In this document: positions 12,155-45,240 of the stretch, piece after piece
Layout: the number at the start of each line of letters is the position of its first letter
Position numbering within the stretch: position 1 is the first letter of the stretch
DNA from: an uncultured delta proteobacterium
GTDB lineage: Bacteria; Desulfobacterota; Binatia; Binatales; Binataceae
NCBI GenBank assembly: GCA_963724765.1
Contig: CAVRVY010000001.1
Span: forward strand, 128,001 to 192,000
Direction of reading: 5' to 3'
DNA: 64,000 nucleotides
The notes under the pieces: model-generated
Databases searched by the model: none
What the model was told of the DNA's origin: nothing
What the model saw: the letters and a program-made list of their open reading frames with translations, nothing else
Position numbers and translations under genes: made by a program

Positions 12155-13220
12155 TTCGTTGGACAGATATCAACAGGGTGTCGCGAGCGAATCGGCGGAC
12201 ATCCAGGGAGGGGGCTCCCGGATGCCCGCCTGCTCACCGTTTGCCTTGCGGCGAACGTCGCTCGGCAAGCGGAAGAATTGTCACAATCAGCTTGAATTCC
12301 GTCACGGGTGAGCGGACTCCTCTTGGTCACTCCGATGCGCGCTCTCGAATACCTACTGTATTTCGATACGCGCGCCAGAGCCATCGGGCCACGATGTGAG
12401 TTGGTTACATGGAGCACCAAGCCCGTCGAACCGCAGGGTTGGGGCCGGCGGCGGTCTGTTACAGTAATGCTTATGCGCGCCGTGCGAGTGTCAGGGAGCC
12501 GAAGATTACGGGGACTCAGGAACATCTCCTGGCTCACCGCGCGCCAGCTGAACCGGCTGGCGGCGGCGCTGGCCATGAGCCGGGTGGCCAAGCGCGGGAT
12601 CATCTTCGACGAACAGCATGCGCCCGAATCGGCGTACGTCCTGCTCTCGGGGGTGGCGCGGATCACCTGCTGCAACCGCAAGGGCGATCGCACGCTGGTG
12701 ATAATGGTCGCGCCGGGGATGATCCCTGGTTTCCCGCCGCCGGTGTCCGGGATCAGCTATAGCTTCCGCTGCGAGGCGGTCACCGACTGCCAGATCGGAA
12801 CCGTGGCGCTGGGGACCTTCATTGAAATCGCGCTGGGGATCGCCTCGGCCGACTTCAAGCGCATGGCCGCCAGCTATTCGGGACGCTGGGACCTGGTGCA
12901 ATTGCGCTGCGCGAATTTCATGAGTTGCACGCTGGAGGAACGCGTGGCGCTGATTCTGCTGGAGCTGAGCGAGAACTTCGGCGTTCCCGATCGGCAGGGC
13001 GTGCGGCTGACCGTGCCGGCGCGGCACAAGGACCTGGCCGAACTGGTGGGCGCCTCCCGGCCGCGGGTGACCGAATATCTCGCGCTGCTCGAACGCGAGC
13101 ATCTGATTGTACGCGAGGGCCGTCAATTGATCGTCAAACGCGAGCGGCTGGAAAACTTTCTCGCCCACCGGCATTCGTCCGCCAGCCGCCGCCAGTTCGA
13201 AAACACCCTCGCGTCATAAC
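12155..13220 (+). repeat. 1,066-bp direct repeat, copy 1 (divergent promoter region + Crp gene)
   Basis: Matches 44175-45240 at offset 32,020; only two differences seen (12186/44206, 12199/44219). Confidence 0.95.
12467..13219 (+). CDS. Crp/Fnr-family transcriptional regulator (copy 1)
   Basis: cNMP-like beta-barrel region, LEERVALILLEL, HTH HKDLAELVGASRPRVTE; start uncertain. Confidence 0.88.
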   Translation: MLMRAVRVSGSRRLRGLRNISWLTARQLNRLAAALAMSRVAKRGIIFDEQHAPESAYVLLSGVARITCCNRKGDRTLVIMVAPGMIPGFPPPVSGISYSFRCEAVTDCQIGTVALGTFIEIALGIASADFKRMAASYSGRWDLVQLRCANFMSCTLEERVALILLELSENFGVPDRQGVRLTVPARHKDLAELVGASRPRVTEYLALLEREHLIVREGRQLIVKRERLENFLAHRHSSASRRQFENTLAS

Positions 13221-13283
13221 TTGTTCCGTGGCGGTTTGGCCTTTTGCAGGCCGCCGAGATAGTCCTTTATAAGACACGGCTTA

Positions 13284-13299
13284 TGTTCCATAGATAACA
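13284..13299. promoter_or_regulatory. Candidate Crp-family operator TGTTC-N6-TAACA
   Basis: About 63 bp upstream of the second Crp gene. Confidence 0.5.
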
Positions 13300-13361
13300 T
13301 TCCGTTTGCTTGATCACCGCGCAGGGGCATAGGGTCGTGACATGCTCTTTAAGGTGCAAAG

Positions 13362-14105
13362 TTGAATGGAACCCGAAATCCCCCAGACAGTGACCTCGAC
13401 AAACTGACCCGGCTCAAGGCTCTTTCATGGCTCTCGGTCGCGGAGCTGGGGGTGCTGGCGGGAGCGCTGGCGCTGACCAACTTCAAACGGCCGCAAATAA
13501 TTTTCCGTGAGGCCGCGCTTACCTCCGACGCGCATATCCTGTTGCAAGGCATCGCGCGCGTCACTTGTCAGAATGCCCGCGGCGAGCGGGTGACCATCGC
13601 CCTGCTGCCGCCGGGTCCGATCCCGGAGTTTCCGTCGTTGCAACTCAGGCGCTTCGATTTTCGCTGCGAAGCTTACAATGATTGCCGCATCGGCAGTCTG
13701 AGCTGGAGCAACTTCGAAGGTATCGCCGCGCATCGCTCGCAGTCGATGTTCAAGACCTTTCATCAGAACGATTTGCAGCAGTGCTACCGGCTGCTGCTGC
13801 GCAGTTCGAGCTTTCTCAACCTCGGGCTCCACGAACGCATCGGGATTACCCTGCTCGAACTGGCTTCCGACTTCGGAATCAGCGAGTCGCGCGGCGCCCT
13901 TTTGCGGGTCTCGTTCAGCCACCAGGACATTGCCGACCTGGTCGGCGCCTCGCGGCCCAGGGTCACCGAGCACCTGGCTCAAATGGAGCGCGAGCAGCTG
14001 GTCATTCGTCAAGGCCGCCAATTGATCGTCCGCGTGGATATGCTTGGAAACGCGATGAACGTTTCGCTACCGAGCGGGCCTAGCTCAATCAGCGCATCCA
14101 TCTAG
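13362..14105 (+). CDS. Crp/Fnr-family transcriptional regulator (paralogue)
   Basis: Same architecture; HQDIADLVGASRPRVTE. Confidence 0.88.
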   Translation: MNGTRNPPDSDLDKLTRLKALSWLSVAELGVLAGALALTNFKRPQIIFREAALTSDAHILLQGIARVTCQNARGERVTIALLPPGPIPEFPSLQLRRFDFRCEAYNDCRIGSLSWSNFEGIAAHRSQSMFKTFHQNDLQQCYRLLLRSSSFLNLGLHERIGITLLELASDFGISESRGALLRVSFSHQDIADLVGASRPRVTEHLAQMEREQLVIRQGRQLIVRVDMLGNAMNVSLPSGPSSISASI

Positions 14106-14360
14106 AAAGCAAGCGGCGCCCGTTCGGCGTCTGATTTCTCAGTGCGCCGGAGGCAAGGCCGCCCGCTCAGCGCCGAACGCATAGAGCGCCAGCCGGCCGA
14201 CACAATCGCATCGCTTTTCCGCCCGCTGCCAAAGATAATTGTCCGCAAACGCCGTTAAGGCTTTTGTGTTTCCGCACCCCCAGAGCCGTTCCGAGACTTT
14301 CCTGCTGATGCTCTCTCTCGCGCACATCCGGCGAAGGCTTTCGACTGCGCTCGGTGAAAT

Positions 14361-14397
14361 AAAAAAGCGGAGCGGAGCCGCGATGGCCCCGCTCCGC
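14361..14397 (-). terminator. Terminator of the ice-binding protein gene
   Basis: gcggagcggagcc/ggccccgctccgc hairpin with A6 on the + strand. Confidence 0.7.
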
Positions 14398-14418
14398 GTT
14401 CGCGCCGTTTTCCCGCCT

Positions 14419-16164
14419 CTACGGAGCGGGTCTCACGACGGTATTGTCGTCCATCGTAACCGCGCCTGTACCGGAGACGGCTCCTGCCAGCGCTCTGCCG
14501 TCCAGCACCGCGCCGCTCACCAGAGTGATTGACGTGTTCGACAGTATGTTTCCCGCAAAGTGACTACCCGTGCCAATGGTCGCTGAACTGCCAACCTGCC
14601 AGAATATCTGGGAAGGTTTGGCGCCGCCTGCGAGTGTAATCCCATAGCCGGATGACGTGGTCAGGGTGGAAGCGATCTGAAAGATAAAGACCGCATTCGG
14701 ATCGCCCTGGGCGTCGAGCGTGAGATTCCCGCCTCCCGATATCGCCGTCGACGTTCCGGACCGATAGAGGCCGGGGGTGAAGGTCAGCCCGCCAATATTT
14801 CCAACGGCCGGAGTAAAAGCCCCCGTTCGTCCCGCGGCGTCGTTATATGCGATGGCCAAGGCCGCCTCGCCGGCCTGAGCGGTGGTATTGTTCACGTCTA
14901 TTGTGCCGTCTACCATTCCTGGCGGGAAATTGGTCATTGAAGTGCCCGGCCACAAGCCGACATCTCCGGTAATCATGGTTGGCGTCGACGTGTTGCTGAT
15001 CCCGGCGGCGGCAAGAACCGCAAAATTGGCCGCGGCGCCAAGAGCTACCGTGCTCTGGCTCGCGCTCGTCCCTGTTGTAAACTGCCATTCATAGCTACCC
15101 GACGGTTGATTCCCCGCCAGTGCATTGTCATACAGATCACGGGCCTCGTTCGTAATCGAAGCGGTGTACAATGTATCGATCAGCAGATTGGCCCTGGGCA
15201 CGAAGGTCGCGATCGTCACGTTGTTTGTCGAGTCATAGAAATAGGTGACGGTTCCGGCCACGCTGGCGCCGCCTGGTCCAGTCAGAAAGAAATCCCCGGT
15301 AGTGATAGTCGCGTAGTTCATCGCTTCGCTGAAGGTCGCATTGACCTTCTGATTGATCGGCACAAGCGACGCATTATTGGCCGGGTTTGTGGAGGTCACG
15401 GTAGGTCGCACAATCGCCGCATCCGTTCCGGTGTCGAAACTCCATACATAGTTGCTAGCCAATGGGATGCTCGCGAGACTTTTAACTCCAGTGGTAATCG
15501 TGGCTATATAGTGAGTGCTCGGTTTGAGACCGTATGCGGGTCTGAAAGTCACAGAGCCGGAGGCGTAAGAGACCGTTCCAATTATCGCGGCACCGCCCGG
15601 TTTTGTCACCGTAAACCTTGTTGTGTCGAACGAACCGGGAGACATTTCCTCGCTAAACATCGCGATGATCAGCTGGTTGGTGGGAACATCTGTAGCGGCG
15701 TCGGCGGGATTTGTGAAAGTCACCGTAGGATGGCTCGTATCGCTGCTAACGCCGGTGGTAAAACTCCATACATACGGATGTCCCATCGCGACGCCTGCCA
15801 GGTCCGAGGCCTCCGGTTTGACTTCGGCAGTATACGTGGTATTAGGCAGCAAGCTCAAAGACGGCCTGAAAATTGCGGTTCTGCCATAGTAACTGACTTC
15901 TCCGCTAACCAGGGCGCCCCCGGGTTTTTGTAGAATCAAACATGCGCTCATCGACGGGATGGACATTTGCTGGCTGAAGGTCACTGTAACTGGCTGATTC
16001 AGGGTTACGCCCACGGCTCCATCAGCCGGGCTCGTCGCGGTCACCGTTGGCGTGACGGAAACCGGGCCTTCGATTTGCGAGTTACTAACTGCGGTCCATA
16101 CGCCTGAAAACGCGATCAGGATTATCGCGATGAACCACAGTTTAAGCGGTTCCTGTGTCTTCAT
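14419..16164 (-). CDS. Secreted ice-binding protein: three SbsA/Big_5 Ig-like domains + DUF3494
   Basis: Three PTV..T.PA...TFS..M...WSFTTG repeats; C-terminal FAVLA, LTLDAQGDPNAVFIFQI, IFWQVGSSAT, GRALA. Confidence 0.9.
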   Translation of the reverse strand: MKTQEPLKLWFIAIILIAFSGVWTAVSNSQIEGPVSVTPTVTATSPADGAVGVTLNQPVTVTFSQQMSIPSMSACLILQKPGGALVSGEVSYYGRTAIFRPSLSLLPNTTYTAEVKPEASDLAGVAMGHPYVWSFTTGVSSDTSHPTVTFTNPADAATDVPTNQLIIAMFSEEMSPGSFDTTRFTVTKPGGAAIIGTVSYASGSVTFRPAYGLKPSTHYIATITTGVKSLASIPLASNYVWSFDTGTDAAIVRPTVTSTNPANNASLVPINQKVNATFSEAMNYATITTGDFFLTGPGGASVAGTVTYFYDSTNNVTIATFVPRANLLIDTLYTASITNEARDLYDNALAGNQPSGSYEWQFTTGTSASQSTVALGAAANFAVLAAAGISNTSTPTMITGDVGLWPGTSMTNFPPGMVDGTIDVNNTTAQAGEAALAIAYNDAAGRTGAFTPAVGNIGGLTFTPGLYRSGTSTAISGGGNLTLDAQGDPNAVFIFQIASTLTTSSGYGITLAGGAKPSQIFWQVGSSATIGTGSHFAGNILSNTSITLVSGAVLDGRALAGAVSGTGAVTMDDNTVVRPAP

Positions 16165-16285
16165 GTGAATCTCTCTCCTCGTTAGTTGGTGCGACGCGTC
16201 GCCGCATAAATTGAAAAGGATAGCAAGTGGGATATCTACTCTATTCTGATGCGATCTTAGGGACTAGTCTGTCAGGAGGCGGAGT

Positions 16286-16301
16286 TGTCACAGGGAGAAC
16301 A
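16286..16301. promoter_or_regulatory. Candidate Crp-family operator TGTCA-N6-GAACA
   Basis: About 120 bp upstream of the ice-binding protein start. Confidence 0.5.
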
Positions 16302-16892
16302 AAAGGCGTCGAACCGGAGCGCTGCTTGTCCTGATGAGACTATTGACTATTGCTATGCGCGTTGTGCGAGCGTGGGGAATGCAAAGAGTACGGTCACTGA
16401 CTAATGGGAACGATAGAACACGGAGATATGGGGATAGTGACGCGAGCAGTGGAGGCTCGTTCGTTCAAGCGGCAATATATGGTCACTTTCCAGGTGTATG
16501 GCTGCTCGATGGGTCCGGGGCGGCGGCGATTTACAAGAGCCTGTGGGCAGCCGGCGTGTTAATCGAAGGCGGCGGGTGCGGGGTTTCTCGACTCGAGAAG
16601 GAAACTCGGCTGACATCGAGAAGATGCGCCCATGCGCTTTGCGGTCGGATCCAGTCGGGGTCGGTGACGCGGGTGCATTTTGACTTCAACAGAGCGAGCG
16701 ACCGTGAAGTTTGAGCAGTGGGCGCTCGATGAATCGGCCGGTACGCGCGAAGCGACTGAGCGCCACGATTTGGGTTAAGAGCTGCTGCGAGGCGAGGGGG
16801 GAGGGCAAGCCTATTGTGGGTTTAGGAGGTCGGGAATTCGTAAGAATTTGCTTATTATGAGGAGATCCGCGAGCCCGCTTCGCCGCTTCGAT

Positions 16893-16908
16893 TGTTCTTT
16901 GGGGAACA
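16893..16908. promoter_or_regulatory. Candidate Crp-family operator TGTTC-N6-GAACA
   Basis: Perfect arms, extendable to TTGTTC/GAACAA. Confidence 0.55.
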
Positions 16909-17121
16909 AATTTCGGGCCTACGCGTGACATTTCGTTCTGATCTTGCCATTACGAGTGTAAAATTGTCCTACCACGCAGGGCGCTGGCCGCTCCGGCCGT
17001 TTCCAAGGGCCGGCTGCAATCGAAGTTCTTACCCTCGCCTTAAGTGCGAACTCGCAAACGCGTGCAGCCCGGATGGCGTCGATGCCAGCGGCAGTTCGTA
17101 AAGGTACCAGTCGCTAATGTG

Positions 17122-17137
17122 TGTTACTTGAGTAACA
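17122..17137. promoter_or_regulatory. Candidate Crp-family operator TGTTA-N6-TAACA
   Basis: 7-bp perfect arms TGTTACT/AGTAACA, about 100 bp before the FAAL gene. Confidence 0.6.
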
Positions 17138-17238
17138 ATGGTAGTGTCTCGAGTCAGGGGCCGGCGCGAAGATTCGGCTTTTGAAAAAGGGACTTCCCAA
17201 CGAAAGCGGCACAGATAAATAGGAGTCCTGCTGATCGG

Positions 17239-19014
17239 GTGGTCGAGTTTTCCACCCTCGTCGAAGCCCTGAGCTGGCGCGCGCTGTGGCAGCCGGAGCA
17301 GCGGATTTACAATTATCTGCTCGATGGAGAAACAGAAGGCGAACACCTGACCTTTGCGGCTCTGGACCGGCAAGCGCGGGCGATTGGTGCGCTGCTGCAA
17401 AGCCATGTGGCAACTGGTGAGCGCGCCCTGTTGCTCTATCCAACGGGTCTCGAATTCATCGCCGGTTTTTTTGGTTGCCTATATGCCGGGGTGATTGCGG
17501 TCCCTGTGCCCCCACCCAATCCAGCCCAGCCGCAGCGAACGCTCCCCAGGCTTCTCGCCATCACTAACGACGCTCGACCGACGGCGGCGCTGACCACGTC
17601 ATCGATTCTGTCCAAGGTGGAGGGCTTGTTCACTCAAGCGCCAGAGCTGCAGACGATGCGCTGGTTGGCCACCGACAACGTTGCCGGTGATCCGGCTGAG
17701 GAATGGCAGGACCCTGCCGCGACCGGCAACAGCCTGGCTTTGCTCCAATACACCTCGGGTTCGACCACGACACCTCGAGGTGTGATGGTCAGCCACGCGA
17801 ACCTCATCCGGAACTCGGCGCATATCAGCCGAGTCTTCGAAGTCGCGGCGGATACCGTATCCGTGACCTGGCTGCCGGCCTTCCATGATATGGGCCTTGC
17901 CAACGGAATCATCCAACCACTGCTCCGGGGACGTCACTGTTACCTGATGCCGCCGCAGTCCTTTCTTCAGCGGCCGGTGCGATGGCTCCAGGCTATTTCG
18001 CGTTACAAGGCCGCCGTCAGTGGAGGCCCCAATTTCGCCTATGAACTATGCTCTCGCAGGGTCACTCCGGAACAACGCGAAACTCTGGACCTCGGCAGTT
18101 GGTATGCGGCTTACAACGGTGCTGAGCCGATCCGGGCGGACACTCTTAGCCGGTTTGTCGCGACCTTTGCACGATGTGGCTTCCGTCCGCGCTTCTTCTA
18201 TCCGTGTTATGGGCTCGCCGAAGCGACCCTGATTGTCTCGGGCGGACTTCTCCACGATGAGCCCATACTCTGCACGACCGAGGTGACGGCGCTCGAACAC
18301 AACCGCGTCGTGGAAGGCTGCGACCCGCTGCGCAATGTGCGGACCCTGGTAGGGTCTGGCGGCGCCATGTTCGGTACACGAATTGTCATCGTCGATCCGG
18401 AATCGTTGACCGCCTGTGCGCCGGATTCAGTGGGCGAAATCTGGGTTTCAGGCCCCACCGTCGCGCACGGCTATTGGAACCGGCCGCAAGAGACCGAGCG
18501 TACTTTCCAGGCCTGTCTGGCGGACACCGGCGAAGGGCCGTTCCTGCGCACCGGCGATTTAGGATTCTTAAAAGACGGCGAGTTGTTCGTCACCGGCCGC
18601 TTGAAGGACCTGATCATCATCGACGGCCGCAACTTCTACCCCCAGGATATTGAATTGACCGTGGAACAGAGCCATCCGGCGATGCGGCCGGGTTGTTGCG
18701 CGGCATTTTCGGTTGATTTCAACGAAGAACGGCTGATCGTCGCCGCGGAGGTTGAGCGTCGCTACCAGGCGGGCTTCCAGGAGAGCCAGGTCGGCCACAA
18801 CGGGACAGCGCGCGCCCATCCAAACGGACGTCCGCCGCTGGATGTCGAGGCGGTAGTGCGGGCCATCCGCCGGACAGTGGCGGAGGAGCACGACGTACGC
18901 GCGCACGCGGTGGTGCTGCTTCGGGCTGGAAGCATCCCGAGGACGCCCAGCGGCAAGGTCCAGCGCCGTGTCTGCAAGGCCAGTTTTCTGGACGGCACGC
19001 TGGACAAACTGTGA
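17239..19014 (+). CDS. Fatty acyl-AMP ligase (FAAL)
   Basis: LQYTSGST, WLPAFHDMGL, CYGLAEATL, FAAL-type insertion, LRTGDLG, PRTPSGK. Confidence 0.92.
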   Translation: MVEFSTLVEALSWRALWQPEQRIYNYLLDGETEGEHLTFAALDRQARAIGALLQSHVATGERALLLYPTGLEFIAGFFGCLYAGVIAVPVPPPNPAQPQRTLPRLLAITNDARPTAALTTSSILSKVEGLFTQAPELQTMRWLATDNVAGDPAEEWQDPAATGNSLALLQYTSGSTTTPRGVMVSHANLIRNSAHISRVFEVAADTVSVTWLPAFHDMGLANGIIQPLLRGRHCYLMPPQSFLQRPVRWLQAISRYKAAVSGGPNFAYELCSRRVTPEQRETLDLGSWYAAYNGAEPIRADTLSRFVATFARCGFRPRFFYPCYGLAEATLIVSGGLLHDEPILCTTEVTALEHNRVVEGCDPLRNVRTLVGSGGAMFGTRIVIVDPESLTACAPDSVGEIWVSGPTVAHGYWNRPQETERTFQACLADTGEGPFLRTGDLGFLKDGELFVTGRLKDLIIIDGRNFYPQDIELTVEQSHPAMRPGCCAAFSVDFNEERLIVAAEVERRYQAGFQESQVGHNGTARAHPNGRPPLDVEAVVRAIRRTVAEEHDVRAHAVVLLRAGSIPRTPSGKVQRRVCKASFLDGTLDKL

Positions 19015-19024
19015 GGGCTGATCG

Positions 19025-22000
19025 ATGGCCGGGAATTCCACCAATGGCGACTTTCGGAGCTTTGCCGATCGGAACGAGCGTGTCGAACAGCGCCATTCAG
19101 ATTCGCCCCCGGCTGAAGTCATCGCGGCCTGGATGGTCTCGCGGCTTTCAGTTCTGCTCGGCATCGAGTCTCACGAGATAGACGTTCGGGAGCCCTTCGC
19201 CAGCTATGGCCTGGGATCAACGGAGTTGGTGAGCCTCTCTGGTGAGCTCGCAGAGTGGCTCGGACGGCAACTTTCTCCTGAACTGGCATATGAGTATTCC
19301 ACCATCGACACTCTCGCGCGGCACCTGGCGCAGCCGCCGGAACTGTCGCGGTCAGCGATGCGGTCGGCCGCGCACTCGGCCGCGAAGACTGGCCAGGATC
19401 CTTTAGCGCAACCCGAACCGATCGCAATCATCGGCATCGGCTGCCGATTTCCCGGCGCCAAGGACCCGTTGGCTTTCTGGCAATTGCTGCACGATGGGGT
19501 CGATGCCATCACGGAAGTTCCCGCCGAGCGCTTCAACCTCCGCGCCTTTTACGATCCAGATCCGGCGGCCCCGGGCAAGATGAGCACCCGCTGGGGCGGC
19601 TTCCTTGAGCAGGTGGACCAATTCGATCCGCATTTCTTCGGCATCTCGCCGCGGGAAGCTTCGCGCATGGATCCCCAGCAACGCCTGTTGCTCGAGGTGG
19701 CTTGGGAAGCGCTGGAAGATGCTGGACAGGTGCGGGAGCGTCTGGCCGGCACTCAGACCGGCGTGTTCATCGGCATATCGAACAACGATTACGGCCGGAT
19801 TCAGTTCAGCGATCCTTATAGCATCGATGCCTACGCGGGCACCGGCAATGCCCTGAGCATCGCGGCCAACCGGCTCTCCTACCTGTTCGATTTCCGCGGG
19901 CCGAGCATCGCGGTTGATACCGCCTGTTCCTCGTCGCTCGTGGCGGTGCACCTGGCCTGCCGCAGCCTCTGGAGCGGAGAGTCCACTGTGGCACTGGCCG
20001 GAGGCGTGAACCTGATCCTGTCGCCGGCGATTAGCATCAATTTTACCAAAGCCGGCGTGATGGCTCCGGACGGGCGCTGCAAGGCTTTCGATGCGCGAGC
20101 CAACGGCTACGTTCGCAGTGAGGGCGCCGGTCTTGTCGTTCTGAAACCCCTGTCGAGGGCCTTGGCCGAAGCTGATCCGATTTACGCGCTGATTCGCGGC
20201 AGCGCGGTGAATCAGGACGGACGGAGCAACGGGCTGATGGCGCCCAATCCGCTGGCTCAGGAGGCCGTCCTGCGCGAAGCCTACCGGCGAGCCGGGGTTT
20301 CGCCCGGCCGCGTGCAATACGTCGAGGCGCACGGCACCGGCACATTTTTGGGCGACCCGATCGAGGCGAAAGCGCTGGGCACGGTGCTCGCCGTCGGCCG
20401 TCCGCGCGCACGCCCATGCGCCTTGGGCTCGGTCAAAACCAATATCGGCCATCTCGAGGCCGCGGCTGGTATTGCCGGCTTGATCAAGGTGGCCCTGACG
20501 CTTAAGCATCGGGAGATCCTGCCGAGCCTGCACTTTCAGGAGCCCAACCCCCATATTCCTTTTGAGACGCTCCCGCTGCGGGTGCAGACGAAACCGGGTC
20601 CGTGGCCCGCGGAGCCGGGTCCGGCGCTGGCCGGGGTGACCTCGTTGGGGTTTGGCGGAACCAATGCTCACGTGGTTCTGCAAGAGGCGCCGCCGTCCAA
20701 CCTCGGAATGCGTAATGGGGACCGCACGGCGGAAAATCCGCGAGGGGAAATCCGCAATAGCAAGTCCGCACACTTACTACCGCTTTCGGCCCGAAGTCCG
20801 GAAGCCCTTCAATCTCTGGCGCGCGCATATCAGGAGTTTCTGGCTGGCGCGGAGTCCAACGCGTCGCTGCGCGACATCTGTTACACGGCCAGCGTGCGCC
20901 GCAGTCATCACGACTATCGCCTCGCGGTGAGGGGCAACTCGCCGGAGCAACTCACCGCGGGCCTGGAGGCCTTCTTGCGCGGCGAGGCTCATTCCGGCCT
21001 GTCCTCCGGTCGCAGCGTTTCAAGTCGCCAGCGAAAACTGGTCTTCGTGTTTCCCGGCCAAGGGTCCCAATGGTGGGGTATGGGACGAGCGCTGCTCACG
21101 CAGGAGGCAGTCTTCCGTGAAGTCGTGAAACGCTGCGACCGGGCGATGCGACGGTACTGCGATTGGTCTTTGCTCGCCGAACTCAGCGCCATCGACGCGT
21201 CGCGGTCGCGGTTGAACGAAATCGACATCGTCCAGCCGGCTCTTTTCGCGATTCAGGTGGCGCTGGCAGCCTTGTGGCGCTCCTGGGGTATCGAGCCACA
21301 GGCCGTCGTGGGCCACAGCATGGGAGAGGTCGCGGCGGCCTGCGTCGCCGGTGCGTTGACTCTGGAAGATGCAACCCGGGTCATTTGCCGGCGCAGCCGT
21401 TTGATTAAGCCCACCATCGGGCGGGGCGCGATGGCCGCGGTGGAGCTTTCGATCGAGGAAGCCCGGCGCGCGCTGGCCGGCTACGAAGATCGCGTATCCA
21501 TCGCTGCCAGCAACAGTCCGACCTCCACGGTGCTGTCAGGAGATCCGGCGGCGCTCAAAGCGATCCTTGATCAATTGCAACGCCAGGACATCTTCTGCGG
21601 CCTGGTCAAGGTCGATTTCGCCTCTCACAGCCACCAGATGGATCCCTTGCGCGCCGATTTGTTGCGGGCCCTGGAAGGGCTGAAGCCTCGGGCCGGATCG
21701 CTGCCCATCTATTCGACCGTGACAGGCATGGTCAGCAATGGAAGCGAGTTCGAGGCGCTCCATTGGGTCAGGAACCTGCGCGAGCCCGTGCTCTTTTCAA
21801 CCGCAGTGCAGCAACTACTGGAAAACGGACATGACACTTTCCTGGAGGTCAGTCCGCATCCCATTTTGCTTAGCGCCATCCAGCAAGGGATTCATCATTT
21901 CGGCCAGGAGGGCGCCGCCGTGCTCCCTTCCCTGCGGCGCGGGGAACAGGAACACGCGGTGATGATGGGATCGCTGGGCGCGTTATATGCGCTCGGTTCT

Positions 22001-35830: not shown

Positions 35831-36136
35831 GCCATAAATACTGCATATACCCCCGAAGAATAGTACATTTCAGAACCGAGTTTGCAGACGATCGGCTCCG
35901 ACATGATGAGTTTAACCCCGATTTGAGCATACCTGTGCTCGCTTTTACTAATCCATTGGCATATAAGTGATCTAAGTCGGCCGAGAGTTTCCTCACATCT
36001 TTACACTTTGCCAAAGGTGGACAACCGAAGGTTGCTCCCCCACTCGGGTATTTGCATCTAGGCCGACTCGCAAAATGGCGATCGAGTGAGTATCACGGCG
36101 GTGTTTGTTATCTCCGAGGAGTCCTAAACTCGTACA

Positions 36137-37129: not shown

Positions 37130-37199
37130 ACGGTCACGAAGTCTCGCATGGTAGCCATCGGCGCGAGTTTCAATCGATTTACCGAGACAACCCACCCTT

Positions 37200-37517: not shown

Positions 37518-37588
37518 ATTGATTCTCCATTTCGCAGCGAATCCCGACAAACCGGCGGATTTCCGCATTGTTGTGTCCGGACTCTCAA

Positions 37589-38050
37589 TCACGCGCTCTT
37601 TTTTGCCGCTGCGGAACGCACTTTGCCCCGAAACATCTCATCGGCGGCCTCTTTCTGTGTGTTCGACATGCTGTTGTACAGAGCCTCAAAGGCCGGGACG
37701 AATTTAGTCATTCCAGCTTCATGCGCTTCGATCACCGCTTGATAGGATTTGACCGCTTCGACTGCAGTCATCGCCTTAGCGTCCTGGCCTCTCTGCTTTT
37801 GCAGATCGCTCATCGCCTTTGCATTATCGCGCATCACCTGGACGAGACCGTCCCATTGGGCCTGCTGGGCAGCCGTGATGTGAAGCCTGTTGTGTAACTC
37901 CTTGATGTGCGCCTCAACGGGATCGGCTTTGGCGGCAGCTACCGCCGGCTCCGTCGTCGCGGGCGCGGCAATGGCTAAAGGACCGGCGAGAACGAACGAG
38001 CCGAACAGGGTCGCCGCCACAAGTGCGCGTGCTGCTGATTGCATGAACAT
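37589..38050 (-). CDS. Spy/CpxP (LTXXQ) family periplasmic chaperone
   Basis: LHITAAQQAQWD...LYNSMSNTQKEAAD; signal peptide. Confidence 0.8.
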   Translation of the reverse strand: MFMQSAARALVAATLFGSFVLAGPLAIAAPATTEPAVAAAKADPVEAHIKELHNRLHITAAQQAQWDGLVQVMRDNAKAMSDLQKQRGQDAKAMTAVEAVKSYQAVIEAHEAGMTKFVPAFEALYNSMSNTQKEAADEMFRGKVRSAAAKKSA

Positions 38051-38220
38051 GTCTTTACTCCCGAAGTTAGTTGCGATCGCTGAAAACCACGACATGACAG
38101 AGTATTCCGGCTACTCTCCGTGATCGTATTATGTCGCGAGGAGAAGCGAGAAGCTAACCTACAGACTTTCGCAAATGGCAGTAAATATCTAGTGATTTAG
38201 CTGTGGAAGACGGAGGAAAG

Positions 38221-38236
38221 TGTTCTCACCGGAACG
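38221..38236. promoter_or_regulatory. Candidate Crp-family operator TGTTC-N6-GAACG
   Basis: Upstream of the Spy/CpxP gene. Confidence 0.45.
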
Positions 38237-38302
38237 AATTGATATGCTTCGAAGGATCGAACGGTGCCAGCAGATTTGCTGTAACTCAGCGGCTCCAAGT
38301 AC

Positions 38303-39166
38303 TCATTGATGAATCGCTTCATCACTTACTATCTGGCCGTCTCGTAAGCGAATCATACGGTGCGCGCGTTCCATGACCTGAGGATCATGGGTGGAAAAAA
38401 TGAAGGTCGTGCCGGTAGCGCGATTGAGATGTTCCATCACGTCGAGAAGCGAGACAGCTGTGGCAGAGTCCAGATTCGCCGTCGGTTCGTCCGCCAGGAT
38501 GAGCGCGGGTTCTGTGACCATGGCTCGCGCGACAGCGACCCGCTGCTGCTGTCCGCCGGACAATTCTGCCGGGCGGCGATCTTCAAGTCCGGCGAGCCCA
38601 ATCTCCGAGAACAATTTGCGTACTTTTTCCCTGCGCTTGTGCGCCGTCATTCCCTGCAGTAGCAAGGTAAACTCGGCATTTTCCAGCGCGGTGAGCACAG
38701 GCATCAGGTTGTAGGTTTGGAAGACGAATCCGATGCGTTGCAAACGCAAACGAGCCAGCGCACCCGCGGATAAGAGTTGAAGATCCTGGCCTGCCACCCG
38801 GACCTCTCCGGTGTCTGCCCGATCGAGTCCGCCGATGATGTTGAGCAGGGTGGTTTTGCCAGAACCTGAGGGGCCGGCAGTAGCCACGAATTCCCCAGGA
38901 GCGATGCGTAGAGAGATGCCACGCAATGCCGGAACTTCTATTGGCCCCGTGCGGTAGGTCTTCCTCAGATCCTTCAGTTCTACCGCCCACTCCACATCGC
39001 TCTCCGCCTGGCGCTTGGCCGCAAGCCGGTCACCGGTTTGCTCGAGCTTGCTGTTGGTTCCCGCCTCTAGTTCATTGTACATCTGATTCTTGGCCGCAGC
39101 AGCATCCGGGCTGGGCTCGAGCGCCCCGAGTGGGCGACGAGGCGGAATAGAGGAGTCCAAGCTCAC
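38303..39166 (-). CDS. ABC transporter ATPase (LolD/MacB type)
   Basis: GPSGSGKT, LSGGQQQR, LADEPT, STHD; true start may be later. Confidence 0.93.
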   Translation of the reverse strand: MSLDSSIPPRRPLGALEPSPDAAAAKNQMYNELEAGTNSKLEQTGDRLAAKRQAESDVEWAVELKDLRKTYRTGPIEVPALRGISLRIAPGEFVATAGPSGSGKTTLLNIIGGLDRADTGEVRVAGQDLQLLSAGALARLRLQRIGFVFQTYNLMPVLTALENAEFTLLLQGMTAHKRREKVRKLFSEIGLAGLEDRRPAELSGGQQQRVAVARAMVTEPALILADEPTANLDSATAVSLLDVMEHLNRATGTTFIFSTHDPQVMERAHRMIRLRDGQIVSDEAIHQ

Positions 39167-39275
39167 GCGAGGAACCTTCGACAGGCGGTCCGCGCACGCT
39201 TGGGCGCTTGGCGGAACGGAACCGCGCTCAGAGATTGGAAGAGCGGCAATAAGCGGCGCACCGTAATGTCGACGC

Positions 39276-39575
39276 TTAGAAAATGAATCCCCAATAGCTC
39301 CTCGCCGTGGACTGACAGTTAGTGTTGTTTGAGTCGCAGCTTAGGCAATTGTAGCCTTGGTCGTCACACACATTGTGTCTCGATGATCCATACTGCGCAT
39401 CAGCGCGTTGACAATTATTGTTATCGTCGCAAGCGAGGCAATTATTGCCATTTGTGTCGCATACCGAGTGTGTCGATGCATACTGCCCGGAGGGGCCAGA
39501 CCAGAAACACGCCTGCATGCCGAGCATTGATAAGACGAGAAGCGAGGCGAAAGCAAGTGTCTTGAACATAGTCAT
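39276..39575 (-). CDS. Small Cys/Asn-rich lipoprotein with an internal duplication
   Basis: Lipobox MQAC; two copies of H.VCD..G.NCL.CD.NN.NCQ. Confidence 0.7.
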   Translation of the reverse strand: MTMFKTLAFASLLVLSMLGMQACFWSGPSGQYASTHSVCDTNGNNCLACDDNNNCQRADAQYGSSRHNVCDDQGYNCLSCDSNNTNCQSTARSYWGFIF

Positions 39576-39650
39576 CTACTTCCTCTTACCATCATGCGCG
39601 TCTCAGGCGTGCGGACGCAAAGTAGGGACGGTTCCGTTTTGAACGCTTGG

Positions 39651-39666
39651 TGTGCTCCGCGGCACA
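39651..39666. promoter_or_regulatory. Candidate Crp-family operator TGTGC-N6-GCACA
   Basis: Perfect arms, 76 bp upstream of the Cys-rich lipoprotein. Confidence 0.55.
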
Positions 39667-39714
39667 GATCGATGAGATAACTTCACGCGGTCTCATGTTC
39701 TGGAGATCGGCTAT

Positions 39715-41007
39715 TTAAAGCACCTTCAACGCGTCCGGCAGATCCGTTCGCGCCGCCTTGAGCGCAGGATAGAAAGAGAGAACTGTCGCCATCATGAATA
39801 CGATGCTTACCGACCAGACGATCCGATCCAGACTCAGGCGCGAATACAAAATCGGGTCAAAGATGAGCGCGGGGTTAAGGCCGGATCTGAATATCCAGCG
39901 CAGATCCAATCCGGTCGTGGCGAAATAGTGTTGTACGCTCAAACCCAGCAGCAGTCCGAGCGCCAGGCTGATAGTCGTGAGAGCCAGAGACTCGCCGACG
40001 ATCATGAGTGCAAGCTGGAGAGGCCGAAGGCCAAGAGCCTTACAGACGCCGAATTCATAGCGGCGCTCCAGGACTCTCATCAAAATCGTGTTGAGTATCC
40101 CGAGTCCTACCATCGCGAGTACCACACCGTTCATGATGTAGTTAAAAGCATGGTCCAGGCGAAGTATCTGAGCCAGCATCGGCATCGATTGCCGCCAGGT
40201 CAGGACCTCGACCGGGGCTCCCTTCAACAGTCTGCGCAGACCCATCGCGACCTTCAGGGAGTCACGCTCCCGGCCAAGCACGAGCGCTATCTGAGTCACC
40301 TGATGGTCCGGCAGTCCGAGCAGTTTTTGGGCCACCGGCAGTGGCAAATGGATGATGTTGGAATCGACCGCTTGCAGGCCCGTGCTAAAGATCCCGGTCA
40401 CTCGTAAGAGCGTGCTTTGCATTTCTCCTCCGGCGCCGTTCTTGGCTTCAGTCCCAGGCTGTCGCACCGGCTGAGTCATAAGCACTACTTTGGAACCCAC
40501 CTTCACCTCGAGCTTGCGGGCTATCTCGGAGCCAATCACAACACCGGAGGGCTTGTCGTCATTCAGATACGTACCCGCGATGATCCGCTGAGGGATCAGC
40601 GACACGGTGCGCTCTTGTCGCGGTATGACTCCGATAATTCTGACGCCGGCGGTGTTGGCTGCAGAACTGAGTAATCCGGAGGCCACAAGCCGCGGACTAA
40701 TGCCTCGCACGAGAGCTGCCATGGCCGGGCTATGCAGCAACTCCTCGGCCGTTGAAACTGCTGAAGCGGTAAGCAACAGCTCTTGGGAACCGGTGTCCTG
40801 AAAACCCTTTGACTGGACTACCACATGCCCTGACCCCAGCCGCACTCCATCGGCGACCATCTGCTCGTGGCCGCCATCGAGTAGGCCCAACGAGATGAGC
40901 AGCAGAGCGAGACCCAGACTCAAGGCGAGGGCTGTCAACAGGGTGCCGCGAGGATTGCGCCAAAGGTTGCGCCAGCTGAGTTTCGCGACAAGGAGAACAC
41001 TAGTCAC
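39715..41007 (-). CDS. FtsX/LolE-like ABC permease
   Basis: WRNLWRN.R, NTILMRVLER..EFG. Confidence 0.9.
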   Translation of the reverse strand: MTSVLLVAKLSWRNLWRNPRGTLLTALALSLGLALLLISLGLLDGGHEQMVADGVRLGSGHVVVQSKGFQDTGSQELLLTASAVSTAEELLHSPAMAALVRGISPRLVASGLLSSAANTAGVRIIGVIPRQERTVSLIPQRIIAGTYLNDDKPSGVVIGSEIARKLEVKVGSKVVLMTQPVRQPGTEAKNGAGGEMQSTLLRVTGIFSTGLQAVDSNIIHLPLPVAQKLLGLPDHQVTQIALVLGRERDSLKVAMGLRRLLKGAPVEVLTWRQSMPMLAQILRLDHAFNYIMNGVVLAMVGLGILNTILMRVLERRYEFGVCKALGLRPLQLALMIVGESLALTTISLALGLLLGLSVQHYFATTGLDLRWIFRSGLNPALIFDPILYSRLSLDRIVWSVSIVFMMATVLSFYPALKAARTDLPDALKVL

Positions 41008-41010
41008 TGC

Positions 41011-42270
41011 TTAGACCTTACGGATCGCTTCCGTTGGCCGAAAGTGCGCAGCCCGCCATGCTGGATAAAAAGCGGACACAAGCGCTGTGATAGCCAATCC
41101 GAGCGCGGCTTCATAATAGGCGGAGAAATCCTGGCGACCGTACCAGAGATGGCCCACTACGACTCCAGCGAGAGAGACCACTTCACCTGTGGCACCGCCC
41201 AAGTCGAGGCCATGGACCTGCAAATACCACAGCAGCGGAGCGCCAATTAGTCCCCCCAAAACCAGACTGACCCCGGCCAAAGCTGCCGCCTCTGCGAGGA
41301 TAAGGCTAATTACCTGGGCCGGCCTCATTCCAAGCGCCATGAGCATGCCGAACTCGCGAGTGCGCTCAAAGACCGCCATCAACATAGTGTTCATGATGCC
41401 GATGACTGCTAACAGAAAGAAGATAAAAAAGAGCACAAAAGTTATGCTGCGATTGAACTGCACATAGTCGGCCAGCTCGGGCACCAGTTGCTCCCAGGAC
41501 ATCACTTGAACAGGTGGTCTCTTGGCCAGTCGGACCTGAAGTGCTGCGGTGACCGCCGTGGCTTCGGCTATGTCGTGAAGCCTGATGCCGATCTCATGTA
41601 TCCTCTCCGGCGCCAGGCTCAATAGTTTCTGCAGAGAAGAAAGGGACATGAGCACCACGCTCCGGTCCAGAGCATCAAGGCCAGTGTGAAAAATTCCGGT
41701 AATGGTGTACAGGTCATTGCCCATCGAACCGTCGGCCGCCTGGGTTAACAGGACGATCTGCGATCCCACCTGGACGCCAATGGTGCTGGCGAGCTTGTCT
41801 CCCACTGCCACACCCATCGGCATCCGTTCGCTCAGGTAGCTCCCCTTTACCATCTGGGTATTGAGGACAGTGATCTTTGGTTCTTGATCGGGAACGACTC
41901 CCAAAAGCTCCACCCCGGAGGAGCGATGGCCCGAGTTCACCAGACCGTAGCCGTACACCCGGGGAGCCACGGCATAAACTCGTGAGTCTGCAGTGATGGC
42001 GGCAAGCAGCGCGCTCACGTCCGTCCCTTTCCTCCCGCCCAAGGTTTTCTGGATGGGACGATTAGGGTAGTAACCTGGTGCGTGCACCTGGATCTGAGAA
42101 AGAACCAGGCGCGTGCCGTTTTCAATCATTTGCCATCTGAGGCCGGCCATCAGGCAAGCAACGAACATCAGCATGGCATAGCCCAGGGCGATGGCGGCCA
42201 TAGTGATGAAGGTACGCCGCGGATTGCGCCAGAGATTGCGCCAGGCAAGCTTGAGAAGCTGCGTGCTCAT
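41011..42270 (-). CDS. FtsX/LolC-like ABC permease
   Basis: AWRNLWRNPRRT, NTMLMAVFERTREFGML. Confidence 0.92.
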   Translation of the reverse strand: MSTQLLKLAWRNLWRNPRRTFITMAAIALGYAMLMFVACLMAGLRWQMIENGTRLVLSQIQVHAPGYYPNRPIQKTLGGRKGTDVSALLAAITADSRVYAVAPRVYGYGLVNSGHRSSGVELLGVVPDQEPKITVLNTQMVKGSYLSERMPMGVAVGDKLASTIGVQVGSQIVLLTQAADGSMGNDLYTITGIFHTGLDALDRSVVLMSLSSLQKLLSLAPERIHEIGIRLHDIAEATAVTAALQVRLAKRPPVQVMSWEQLVPELADYVQFNRSITFVLFFIFFLLAVIGIMNTMLMAVFERTREFGMLMALGMRPAQVISLILAEAAALAGVSLVLGGLIGAPLLWYLQVHGLDLGGATGEVVSLAGVVVGHLWYGRQDFSAYYEAALGLAITALVSAFYPAWRAAHFRPTEAIRKV

Positions 42271-43130
42271 TACTTCATGTTGGGCAGGGAGAACGTCTCC
42301 GCGCTGATCGGCACGTCGAAGCTGATATTGTCGTACACAACAGTAGTCTGCTCCTCAGGTTTGTCCGCCGCTTGCATAACCAGGCGCGTAGGAACGAGCC
42401 TCCCCCCCATTGTTTTGTAATCAGAAAAAGTCAGCTCCCGCACCAGCTTGCCGTCTTCATCGTAGTAGCCTTGCCAGGCCGGCATCAGGTTGGTCTGGCG
42501 GATCTGCAGAACAATTTTGCCCCAGACTACCACTGCCTCCGGCTTGGGCGTCAAGGTATATTCATATACCGCGACTTTACCCCGTTTTCCTTCAAAGGAT
42601 GTCGCGATAGAGTAGTCGCGGGTAAGAAAACTCTCTTTCACGAGGTCGTCGATAGTGAAGGCACTTCCCATCCACGAAGTCATCGTCATTGAAGTAGGAA
42701 GCTTGACCGTGCGTTTCGTTTTCGGCAGGTAGTACCAGATGTCGCGACCGACTTTGAGGATCGCTGTGCCGGCTTGATCTTGAGGAGCATCGATATGCAC
42801 CAGAACCTTGTCGCCTAGCGACCAGATCTTCATCGAGAGGTTGCGTGGAGCGTCTTCATTGGAGACTTGCATTGTCAGCGAGGCGATGCTGGATTTGCTG
42901 CTAAACAGGCGAGCTACATGGTCCACGATTTGCCGTGCCCGTGGATCGTCCGCGCCATGAGACGGCTCGGCCGCTGCGGCATGAGAGAGATGGGCCGGAC
43001 CCAGCAATGCCAGCGCAACGCATATGGCTAAACCTGCTTCTTTCCATCGCATAACTAGACCATGTTTACCCCGAAACGGCCCAAGCAACGCGGGAACACG
43101 CGAGCCTGTCTGAGTCTGATCGGCGCTCAA
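42270..43130 (-). CDS. LolA-like outer-membrane lipoprotein-sorting protein
   Basis: GTAILK, WYYLP, SWMGSAFT.DDL, YYDEDGKL; real start may be 43052. Confidence 0.85.
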   Translation of the reverse strand: MSADQTQTGSRVPALLGPFRGKHGLVMRWKEAGLAICVALALLGPAHLSHAAAAEPSHGADDPRARQIVDHVARLFSSKSSIASLTMQVSNEDAPRNLSMKIWSLGDKVLVHIDAPQDQAGTAILKVGRDIWYYLPKTKRTVKLPTSMTMTSWMGSAFTIDDLVKESFLTRDYSIATSFEGKRGKVAVYEYTLTPKPEAVVVWGKIVLQIRQTNLMPAWQGYYDEDGKLVRELTFSDYKTMGGRLVPTRLVMQAADKPEEQTTVVYDNISFDVPISAETFSLPNMK

Positions 43131-43134
43131 GCCG

Positions 43135-44097
43135 TCATGCCTGCCCGACCGTACGCTTCGTTATGAGTTCGCGTTTAACTTCGACGACTTCAGTGACAAG
43201 CGGCTTACCCATCAATAGTCCCATCGGTATTCGCACCAGAAGGTTAAAGGCGCATACGGCCAGGGAGAGCGCGAACAGATCGTCCTTGCTGGCGAACCGT
43301 GCAAAACTGAGGGTGAAGACGAGCTGAGTCGTTCCGATCCCTCCCGGCGAAAACGGCGCATTGCCTATCGCCACAATGAATGGCGTCAACGCCAATGCCT
43401 GCGTTAGCGGGAGCTTTATATGAAAACTCGCGAACTGTCCGTAGAGCGATAAGCCTGCGCCCAGGAAAATCAGGAACCTGATAGAGAGCAGACTGAGATA
43501 CTGCAGCGGCCGCGCCATGCGGAAGCTTACCAGCGACGGCCGATCGTAGATCCATCGGAGCCAATTTCCGGCCCCGAGCCTAGCCCCCCACAACAGCCAG
43601 AACGTGGCGATGAAACCGCCAATTCCAAGCGCACCTGCCGCGTAATTCAAGCCGAGACGGATCGGTGACGTCGGCACGACCGCGATCGCAAGCAGCGATA
43701 GTACGGCCAGCAGCATCACGTCGACGTAGGTCTGGAACAGCAAGGTGCCTACGCCCGTCAGCCAGGGCACGCGCTTGCGTGTGTGAAGGAAGAGCACATA
43801 CATACTGCTGGCTACATAGGAGTTGACGATCTGAAAAAAATAGACCGTGGCCATGGTCGGAAGCAGCTCGCGCGACTTGGTCGGCCCGTGGAAATAACTG
43901 AACAGACGGGAATACAGGATCGTCTCACCGACAAACCAGCATAGAAGGCCCCCAAGGCTCGCGCCCACAAAGAGCCAGAACCTGGCACGGCCCGCGGCAT
44001 CGGCCACCTGGCTCCAGGAGATGCCACGCGCGGCGTACCATACGATTGCCGCCGCTATCCCATAGGCGACAAGGTTTTGCAGCACTGTCTTGCGCAC
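43135..44097 (-). CDS. Lysylphosphatidylglycerol-synthase TM / flippase-like membrane protein
   Basis: Multiple TM helices; PFSPGGIGT motif; GAAGGAG RBS before GTG 44097. Confidence 0.7.
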   Translation of the reverse strand: MRKTVLQNLVAYGIAAAIVWYAARGISWSQVADAAGRARFWLFVGASLGGLLCWFVGETILYSRLFSYFHGPTKSRELLPTMATVYFFQIVNSYVASSMYVLFLHTRKRVPWLTGVGTLLFQTYVDVMLLAVLSLLAIAVVPTSPIRLGLNYAAGALGIGGFIATFWLLWGARLGAGNWLRWIYDRPSLVSFRMARPLQYLSLLSIRFLIFLGAGLSLYGQFASFHIKLPLTQALALTPFIVAIGNAPFSPGGIGTTQLVFTLSFARFASKDDLFALSLAVCAFNLLVRIPMGLLMGKPLVTEVVEVKRELITKRTVGQA

Positions 44098-44174
44098 CTG
44101 GACTTTCACTCCTTCAGGGATAGGGGTAACGCAGCCCTGCGCATAGGCAATGCGGTATTTCTCCTCAGCGTCGC

Positions 44175-45240
44175 TTCGTTGGACAGATATCAACAGGGTG
44201 TCGCGGGCGAATCGGCGGGCATCCAGGGAGGGGGCTCCCGGATGCCCGCCTGCTCACCGTTTGCCTTGCGGCGAACGTCGCTCGGCAAGCGGAAGAATTG
44301 TCACAATCAGCTTGAATTCCGTCACGGGTGAGCGGACTCCTCTTGGTCACTCCGATGCGCGCTCTCGAATACCTACTGTATTTCGATACGCGCGCCAGAG
44401 CCATCGGGCCACGATGTGAGTTGGTTACATGGAGCACCAAGCCCGTCGAACCGCAGGGTTGGGGCCGGCGGCGGTCTGTTACAGTAATGCTTATGCGCGC
44501 CGTGCGAGTGTCAGGGAGCCGAAGATTACGGGGACTCAGGAACATCTCCTGGCTCACCGCGCGCCAGCTGAACCGGCTGGCGGCGGCGCTGGCCATGAGC
44601 CGGGTGGCCAAGCGCGGGATCATCTTCGACGAACAGCATGCGCCCGAATCGGCGTACGTCCTGCTCTCGGGGGTGGCGCGGATCACCTGCTGCAACCGCA
44701 AGGGCGATCGCACGCTGGTGATAATGGTCGCGCCGGGGATGATCCCTGGTTTCCCGCCGCCGGTGTCCGGGATCAGCTATAGCTTCCGCTGCGAGGCGGT
44801 CACCGACTGCCAGATCGGAACCGTGGCGCTGGGGACCTTCATTGAAATCGCGCTGGGGATCGCCTCGGCCGACTTCAAGCGCATGGCCGCCAGCTATTCG
44901 GGACGCTGGGACCTGGTGCAATTGCGCTGCGCGAATTTCATGAGTTGCACGCTGGAGGAACGCGTGGCGCTGATTCTGCTGGAGCTGAGCGAGAACTTCG
45001 GCGTTCCCGATCGGCAGGGCGTGCGGCTGACCGTGCCGGCGCGGCACAAGGACCTGGCCGAACTGGTGGGCGCCTCCCGGCCGCGGGTGACCGAATATCT
45101 CGCGCTGCTCGAACGCGAGCATCTGATTGTACGCGAGGGCCGTCAATTGATCGTCAAACGCGAGCGGCTGGAAAACTTTCTCGCCCACCGGCATTCGTCC
45201 GCCAGCCGCCGCCAGTTCGAAAACACCCTCGCGTCATAAC
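44175..45240 (+). repeat. 1,066-bp direct repeat, copy 2
   Basis: Matches 12155-13220. Confidence 0.95.
44487..45239 (+). CDS. Crp/Fnr-family regulator (copy 2, protein identical to copy 1)
   Basis: Identical translation in the ORF track. Confidence 0.88.
   Translation: MLMRAVRVSGSRRLRGLRNISWLTARQLNRLAAALAMSRVAKRGIIFDEQHAPESAYVLLSGVARITCCNRKGDRTLVIMVAPGMIPGFPPPVSGISYSFRCEAVTDCQIGTVALGTFIEIALGIASADFKRMAASYSGRWDLVQLRCANFMSCTLEERVALILLELSENFGVPDRQGVRLTVPARHKDLAELVGASRPRVTEYLALLEREHLIVREGRQLIVKRERLENFLAHRHSSASRRQFENTLAS

Follow-up and report, generated by a model that had tools for sequence, protein, structure and literature searches.

The stretch of DNA considered here (the window, 64,000 nucleotides) corresponds to positions 128001-192000 of contig C1 (CAVRVY010000001.1) in the assembly GCA_963724765.1 of an uncultured member of the Binataceae, a genome of 5,415,031 bases in four contigs with no N, which we call G000. 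The window contains two copies of one cassette, made up of a leader and a gene for a Crp-type regulator (Crp1), which lie as direct repeats at 12155-13220 and 44175-45240, on either side of a polyketide synthase/nonribosomal peptide synthetase (PKS/NRPS) gene cluster. The offset is 32,020, and 1,064 of 1,066 bases match; the copies differ at 12186 (A in copy 1, G in copy 2) and at 12199 (likewise A and G). Coordinates, offset and both substitutions had been given in a preliminary description of this DNA and were confirmed, as was its statement that identity ends one base after the Crp stop, since the Crp1 open reading frame (ORF), stop codon included, ends at 13219 and the repeat at 13220. Outside both repeat ends, identity is at once at random level. 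A chance or low-complexity origin is ruled out by a match of 1,066 bases with two differences. The parts of the repeats are the following.

12155..13220, plus strand: repeat copy 1, leader and complete Crp1 gene; 1,064/1,066 identity to copy 2
44175..45240, plus strand: repeat copy 2, leader and complete Crp1 gene; both flanks found as loose ends in the metagenome runs X2 and X4 (see below)
12155..12472, plus strand: structured leader/promoter region ("up") of copy 1, 318 nt; fold z -3.45
44175..44492, plus strand: leader of copy 2; adjoins the start of the LPG-synthase operon, which is transcribed divergently
12194..12230 (copy 1) and 44214-44250 (copy 2), plus strand: leader hairpin with a 16-bp stem, from the alignment with relatives
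12473..13219, plus strand: Crp1 coding region of copy 1, 248 aa; cNMP_binding and HTH_Crp_2
44493..45239, plus strand: Crp1 coding region of copy 2; identical protein, from the sequence

Crp1 belongs to the Crp/Fnr family, with an N-terminal cyclic-nucleotide-binding-type domain (PF00027, 32.9 bits) followed by a C-terminal Crp-type helix-turn-helix (PF13545, 46.5 bits), both above the Pfam cut-offs. Its start at 12473 was deduced from the starts of homologues, the longest ORF beginning at 12308. The two ends of the repeat coincide with gene limits, namely the start of the LPG-synthase ORF and the base after the Crp1 stop.

The leader is non-coding and folds strongly (z -3.45) around the hairpin. 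The A at 12199 disrupts the stem in copy 1, and this position is G in copy 2 and in all aligned relatives. A known RNA family was sought in Rfam and rejected: the two matches, at 21 vs. 72 and 17.8 vs. 79 bits, were below the gathering scores. The hairpin may be an undescribed cis-regulatory element. Sequences related to the hairpin element with its GGGG loop (12193-12266 and 44213-44286) were also observed elsewhere in the same genome, at C4:760008-760263, upstream of a DksA/TraR-type gene, and at C1:1375804-1375844. Those genomes of the genus without other matches to it have one hairpin match of 65-75 nt each.

The genes between and around the repeats are listed below (Pfam assignments, unless another basis is given).

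7781..11863, minus strand: left stress genes, i.e., two BON, collagen-repeat/OmpA, Holin-X-like, a 108-aa ORF and DUF883
7781-8188 and 8244-8690, minus strand: the two BON genes
11471-11863, minus strand: DUF883_C
13362..14105, plus strand: CrpB, a further Crp-type paralogue, usually found downstream of Crp1
14419..16164, minus strand: gene for a Big_5/ice-binding-like protein
17239..35830, plus strand: PKS/NRPS cluster core as a whole
17239-19014, plus strand: AMP-binding enzyme of the fatty-acyl-AMP ligase type
19025-25165, plus strand: PKS (KS-AT-DH-KR-ACP)
25162-26736, plus strand: stand-alone condensation (C) domain
26733-34019, plus strand: two-module NRPS with a terminal thioesterase (TE)
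34153-35049, plus strand: type II thioesterase
35063-35830, plus strand: phosphopantetheinyl transferase (PPTase)
36137..37129, plus strand: 330-aa protein with no Pfam family; in relatives it adjoins the cluster or CsbD/DUF3309
37589..38095, minus strand: LTXXQ-motif protein gene; between Crp1 and CrpB in four relatives
38303..44193, minus strand: export/envelope operon, i.e., ABC ATPase, two MacB/FtsX-type permeases, LolA-like and LPG_synthase_TM (LPGs)
45598-45813, minus strand: CsbD
46090-46266, minus strand: DUF3309
46815-47354, plus strand: DUF1003

The names that had been given to these genes in the preliminary description (BON, DUF883, Crp, CsbD, DUF3309, DUF1003, ice-binding) agree with Pfam. 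Pfam found no transposase or integrase family in any of the 18 main ORFs of the interval, and the stretches that separate these ORFs are too short for such a gene. The earlier remark that the locus has no insertion sequence (IS) or integrase is thus correct for the interval but not for the surroundings, where IS21 elements and a serine recombinase gene lie 5.7-13 kb to the right. An IS or a composite transposon was rejected as the origin of the repeats, because these encode a Crp-type regulator and the interval contains no transposase. As a side observation, the 182 non-coding nt upstream of the DUF883 gene (11864-12045) are 83-88% identical to four relatives, as compared to 72-75% for the neighbouring coding regions.

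The junctions between the repeats and their flanks were compared with other genomes, all of them metagenome-assembled, some incomplete or frameshifted (given as Gnnn, with the contig after the colon). At the left junction of copy 1, the alignments with G003:C10, G013:C11 and G004:C2 run unbroken from DUF883 through 12155 to the Crp1 stop, at 77-79% identity. The right junction of copy 1 is contained in a one-piece alignment of 12376-14057 with G014:C12, which then continues into an ice-binding gene (the order on this contig is collagen/OmpA, Crp1, CrpB, ice-binding gene), and G003:C10 aligns over 13028-14038, again in one piece. For the left junction of copy 2, the evidence comes from G003, the relative sharing most cluster DNA. 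Its contig C2 is colinear with window positions 7788-9362, followed by 46089-46597, 16893-37129 and 38319-44450, and the alignment is continuous over 39277-44450, so that it reaches 276 nt into the repeat. Directly after this point there are 58 nt that correspond to 44992-45048 at 84%, and then core DNA. The likeness of this remnant to the context of copy 1 starts at 12154, i.e., at the same left boundary. Judging from the alignment, the remnant is a decayed Crp1 with an internal deletion beside LPGs. A further trace is present on G014:C10, where 59 nt of the leader remain beside LPGs, together with a CrpB-type gene.

The gene neighbourhoods were also counted. Among 64 full-length Crp1-type loci of other genomes of the family, CrpB is directly downstream in 41 and LTXXQ is next in 4, and DUF883 or its neighbour ORF is upstream in 14. 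Another 40 regions upstream of LPGs were drawn from about 52 orthologue matches of at least 64%, with six genomes already examined and unpublished genomes excluded; a CrpB-type gene is found there in 4/40 and LTXXQ in 2/40.

A separate observation concerns the LTXXQ gene, which lies between Crp1 and CrpB on G003:C10, G013:C11, G004:C2 and G006:C48. Part of the Crp1 3' end, from about 13028 on, stands as a direct repeat on either side of this gene in at least three of these genomes (G003, G013 and G004); for G006 a second copy could not be made out. This arrangement is a small-scale version of the architecture that brackets the cluster.

The reading that we favour, with a probability of roughly one half, is that old paralogous Crp sites have recently undergone gene conversion. 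According to this proposal, one Crp/Fnr-type cassette of leader and gene would have two long-standing sites, the first adjoining the DUF883 stress operon and the second at the right end of the PKS/NRPS cluster, where it faces the LPG-synthase/ABC export operon head-to-head. RecA-type homologous recombination would recently have homogenised the two copies and left their flanks unexchanged, i.e., an ectopic gene conversion. Both sites hold homologous sequence in one relative, as an intact copy on G003:C10 and as leader plus gene fragment on G003:C2, and the DUF883-side and LPGs-side leaders are 68% alike in G003 vs. 99.3% in G000. We infer from this that the identity of the two copies arose by conversion. 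Moreover, about 20 nt to the left of 12155 show a weak likeness across the copies of every genome, and the two G000 copies differ there; this likeness, although thin evidence, has the look of a conversion-tract edge inside older homology. Additional support comes from a second near-identical tract among the Crp loci of G000 (13225-14075, 99.88% to a site on contig C3), described below.

With respect to the direction of the exchange, the G000 repeat leader is 79/70% identical to G003:C2 and 71.5/63% to G003:C10 over two sub-segments, a modest lean. Since the leader is closer to the LPGs-side leader of G003 and the repeat begins, on its left, where the LPGs ORF starts, the sequences lean weakly towards copy 2 as the donor. 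A rooted direction of conversion was sought in trees and abandoned: the informative sites were 20 vs. 16, the leader tree was a three-way split, and bootstrap values in the Crp1 tree were 26-51 at the relevant nodes.

The second tract and a further remnant of Crp1 are located as follows.

13225..14075, plus strand: 851-bp tract (CrpB and its upstream region), 99.88% identical to C3:714466-713616 of the same genome
16285..16415, plus strand: third copy of Crp1, a decayed remnant with the leader's 3' end and some 17 codons from the start of the gene; marks the left cluster border

On C3, the 851-bp tract is preceded by a 78-nt Crp1 fragment that corresponds to window positions 12950-13027 (98.7%), so that 13028-13224, a gap of 197 nt, are skipped; farther out there is an older leader remnant at 84%. 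The joint of the C3 type, with its flanks, was also seen in the runs X1-X4. This mosaic, in which 197 nt are missing between pieces of 78 and 851 nt, raises another explanation, namely that a Crp1 fragment was copied and pasted in without prior homology, for instance by capture at a DNA break, and that one of the two sites is newly made. The limits of the repeat, which are gene limits on both sides, would suit such an event. In G001, the genes flanking the C3 site are 1.47 kb apart, as compared to 2.63 kb in G000, and no CrpB match was found between them; yet these 1.47 kb are other DNA, and a clean empty site for the C3 copy of CrpB was not found. Remnants of leader and Crp occupy the copy-2 site in G003 and G014, and the C3 site has the 84% leader remnant; both speak for prior homology at these places, and we regard a copy-and-paste origin as quite improbable.

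Two side observations were made on C3. The site (C3:713616-714544) has an isoamylase gene on one side and a YflT-like gene on the other, with a LigD gene nearby. At C3:713178-713327 there is an element of about 148 nt, about 80% conserved, which occurs near Crp-type/CsbD genes in at least eight other genomes of the genus. In the window, a 126-aa ORF (16334-16714) between the ice-binding gene and the cluster begins with the third Crp1 remnant.

Several results weigh against gene conversion. Diverged homology outside the tract extends for about 20 nt on the left and is lacking on the right, and the 109 nt to the left of copy 1 (12046-12154) are 37-50% identical to relatives, with no alignment. 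The repeat spans the whole shared region and has sharp ends, which a plain duplication would fit as well. The old second site is documented by remnants in G003 and G014 only, and the relatives are the partly incomplete or frameshifted genomes mentioned above. The leader and Crp1 trees appear too poorly rooted and resolved to name a donor. The right junction of copy 2, from Crp1 into the CsbD side, has no exact counterpart in relatives, where instead CrpB adjoins CsbD (G005:C17 and locus L102). Finally, an intact Crp1 beside LPGs was found in 0/64 Crp1 loci and in 0/40 LPGs upstream regions, a result that cuts against conversion and against the insertion considered below alike.

The distribution of the cluster bears on its age. 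DNA of the cluster core (about 16.9-34 kb of the window) was found in 9 of the 16 other genomes of the genus (G001, G002, G003, G004, G005, G006, G009, G014 and G015), at 71-81% DNA identity. The export operon matched seven of the 16 and the 330-aa protein ten, and LPGs orthologues were counted in 69/165 genomes of the family (a tally that includes four unpublished genomes). The cluster was not found in G013, which is 96% complete and is the most similar relative at one core locus (90%); its distribution is therefore patchy. In relatives it usually lies among the same small stress genes, with a different gene order each time, and its chromosomal site differs among G000, G003 and G014. Taken together, the cluster is, as far as these sequences tell, an old, position-variable part of the stress-gene neighbourhood in the genus and no fresh foreign insert; only the repeats appear to be young. 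The preliminary description had spoken of an ice-binding/lipopeptide module. This does not hold as a conserved unit, because G000 is the only genome in which cluster and ice-binding gene are linked; in the other genomes examined, the latter lies on other contigs.

Crp1-type genes or remnants lie at the borders of the cluster in four genomes, i.e., G000, G003, G014 and, outside the genus, G041. In G041 an intact Crp1 gene is on the left of the cluster, and in G003 and G014 remnants are on its right. These four cases, three from the genus plus G041, hint that paralogous regulators may guide rearrangements.

The origin originally proposed for the locus was a 32-kb circle, newly integrated by a single crossover through the Crp gene. 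In a broader form, a segment of about 31-32 kb with a Crp1 copy would have entered the stress locus by recombination in Crp1, from a circle, by unequal crossing-over or by tandem duplication. As in Campbell-type integration, direct repeats of shared sequence flank a long interval and no transposase is present. The identical repeats and the absence of an IS inside the interval are what such an event would leave, and the differing chromosomal sites of the cluster in G003, G014 and G000, as well as its apparent absence from G013, point the same way. The orders Crp1-cluster-LPGs (G041), cluster-LPGs-Crp1 remnant (G003) and Crp1...cluster-LPGs-Crp1 (G000) are, moreover, circular permutations of each other. 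The stress genes that would be rejoined around a single Crp gene on removal of the interval are indeed joined without the cluster on G005:C17 and at L102, where the order is HolinX-orf-DUF883-(Crp1 or remnant)-CrpB-CsbD (Crp1 is internally deleted in G005), but the regulator on the CsbD side is CrpB and not Crp1. In fact, CsbD was next to Crp1 in none of the 64 full-length Crp1-type loci. An exact insertion point between CrpB and CsbD was sought and given up, the alignments with G005 and L102 being only patchy. If the usual DUF883-Crp1-CrpB-CsbD locus had undergone a single crossover in its Crp1, CrpB would be beside copy 2, whereas CrpB adjoins copy 1 and copy 2 runs into the CsbD side. Furthermore, three of the four junctions pre-exist, colinear, in other species, and a decayed Crp1 with the same left boundary is already at the copy-2 site in G003. 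Neither a circle nor a clean empty-site form was found among the run contigs, which are too short to show one. For these reasons a newly integrated circle is not upheld, and we consider entry of the segment through Crp1 in any form possible but unlikely, although a recombinational route through Crp genes is a fair general idea. Of the view that the cluster is a plug-in, the variable site and the Crp1 sequence at the borders are retained, while the core in 9/16 other species of the genus and the three old junctions speak against it.

A more general form of this idea is that the Crp1 cassette acts as portable homology: with RecA as the only requirement, a bracketed cluster would leave as a circle and integrate again at another Crp locus. 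Every genome of the family would offer several Crp1/CrpB loci, and a 30-kb cluster could be relocated, lost or amplified with neither IS nor integrase. The permuted orders in G041, G003 and G000, the Crp remnants at the borders and the differing cluster sites would be its traces. We consider this proposal rather doubtful.

The repeats might also result from a false join or a collapsed repeat, the true arrangement being a chromosome with one Crp1 and a separate molecule; misassembly had been named as the alternative in the preliminary description. The assembly consists of four contigs with an estimated completeness of 96.98% and an estimated contamination of 5.16%. The stretch is present in soil, peat and sediment metagenome runs of several studies, and Logan contigs of four runs (X1-X4, from three studies) were aligned to window positions 9155-16220. 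All of these contigs are short; the source of the assembly may be among these runs, and not all are independent. A contig of X2 spans 12950-13880 with 0 differences and hence bridges the right junction of copy 1. At 12155 there is a loose end in X2, and its 30 letters are the left flank of copy 2; a loose end at 13220 in X4, which comes from a different study than X2, is the right flank of copy 2. Three of the four repeat junctions are thus carried by contigs of other public runs. In X1, X2 and X4 the repeat has about double the word depth of its flanks, a value that is indicative only. At the left junction of copy 1 no listed contig of the four runs bridges the gap at about 12001-12200, and short contigs cannot link both ends of a 1,066-bp repeat, so this part of the arrangement would still accommodate an artefact. 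On the other hand, the two copies are distinguishable at two bases, and the assembly resolves a 2.55-kb IS21-family element that is present in 8 copies at 99.9-100% identity, which argues for long reads. Given the three junctions in contigs of other runs, an assembly artefact is very unlikely.

The locus lies in a larger segment that varies among relatives, and the features at and beyond its edges are given here.

7068..50459, no strand: segment of 43.4 kb absent from the matching G003 site, from alignment; it holds the stress genes, both repeats and the cluster
50460..50549, plus strand: tRNA-Ser(TGA) gene, right edge of the variable segment
50964-53233: IS21 element (istA/istB), just past tRNA-Ser
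53282-54823: large serine recombinase gene; resolvase domain matches from profile position 48
55830-58382: IS21-family element, 2,553 bp, 8 copies in the genome

On G003:C13, core DNA matching 1287-7067 (87%) is 93 bp from a tRNA-Ser gene matching 50460-50559 (95%); the 43.4-kb segment is therefore absent there, and its modules sit on two other contigs of G003. Other DNA occupies the tRNA-Ser site in G014 (8.6 kb) and G005 (about 30.6 kb). The region resembles a tRNA-linked island in that it abuts tRNA-Ser, is absent at the G003 site and is replaced in G005 and G014. It differs in that there is no integrase match by the tRNA and no tRNA-end repeat, and in that the segment is on the 5' side of the tRNA. 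The serine recombinase gene lies beyond tRNA-Ser and the IS21 element, the 56-aa ORF beside tRNA-Ser (50269-50439) has no Pfam match, and no word of at least 11 nt is shared between the two segment borders. A classical integrase-mediated tRNA island was rejected on these grounds, i.e., no att-like repeat and no integrase match by the tRNA.

Three more observations were made on the surroundings. An element of about 230 nt at the left edge of the variable segment (7090-7333) has copies (78-84%) in G003, G004, G005 and G013, where they lie just outside the Holin-X/DUF883 module. A 142-nt repeat at 62319-62460 has at least seven more copies (90-95%) on C1, C3 and C4, and a similar piece adjoins the LPG-synthase gene in G041. 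G014 has a block of 11 kb with BON, collagen/OmpA, Crp1, CrpB and two ice-binding genes (G014:C12:81493-92500, locus L045), which sits between sequences that are 158 bp apart in C2 of G000 (C2:138424-141920). The block is inserted there, and hence the stress module, too, changes place between species.

RecA-dependent gene conversion is known to homogenise dispersed bacterial paralogues, such as the duplicate tuf genes of Salmonella and the rRNA operons. The Crp1 repeats are similar in that copies tens of kb apart are near-identical with unexchanged flanks, while their G003 counterparts are 68% alike. They are unlike these cases in that a regulator gene with its leader is concerned and not a highly expressed housekeeping gene, in that they bracket a biosynthetic cluster, and in that the second site is seen in relatives as remnants only. 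In Streptomyces, amplifiable units of DNA consist of gene clusters between direct repeats of about 1 kb, and they amplify or delete. Here, too, direct repeats of about 1 kb surround a region for secondary metabolism, and its amplification or loss by recombination is conceivable in principle; the host, however, is an uncultured member of the Binataceae and not an actinomycete, and amplification or deletion was not observed. A dedicated amplification protein of the relaxase-like type was not noticed either, although no search was aimed at one. A literature search found nothing bearing on the Crp-repeat locus itself.

For genome mining, the locus is a caution that identical repeats around a cluster are, taken alone, no proof of recent acquisition. 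Flanked by 1-kb direct repeats, the 31-kb interval is plausibly prone to being deleted or amplified by RecA, and two copies of Crp1 would double the dosage of the regulator. If this is true, a lipopeptide-type cluster of 31 kb between 1-kb repeats could be lost or amplified with no need of a mobile-element enzyme. If recombination keeps the two copies identical, the locus would be a clear example of concerted evolution of a regulator in the uncultured soil lineage Candidatus Binataceae.

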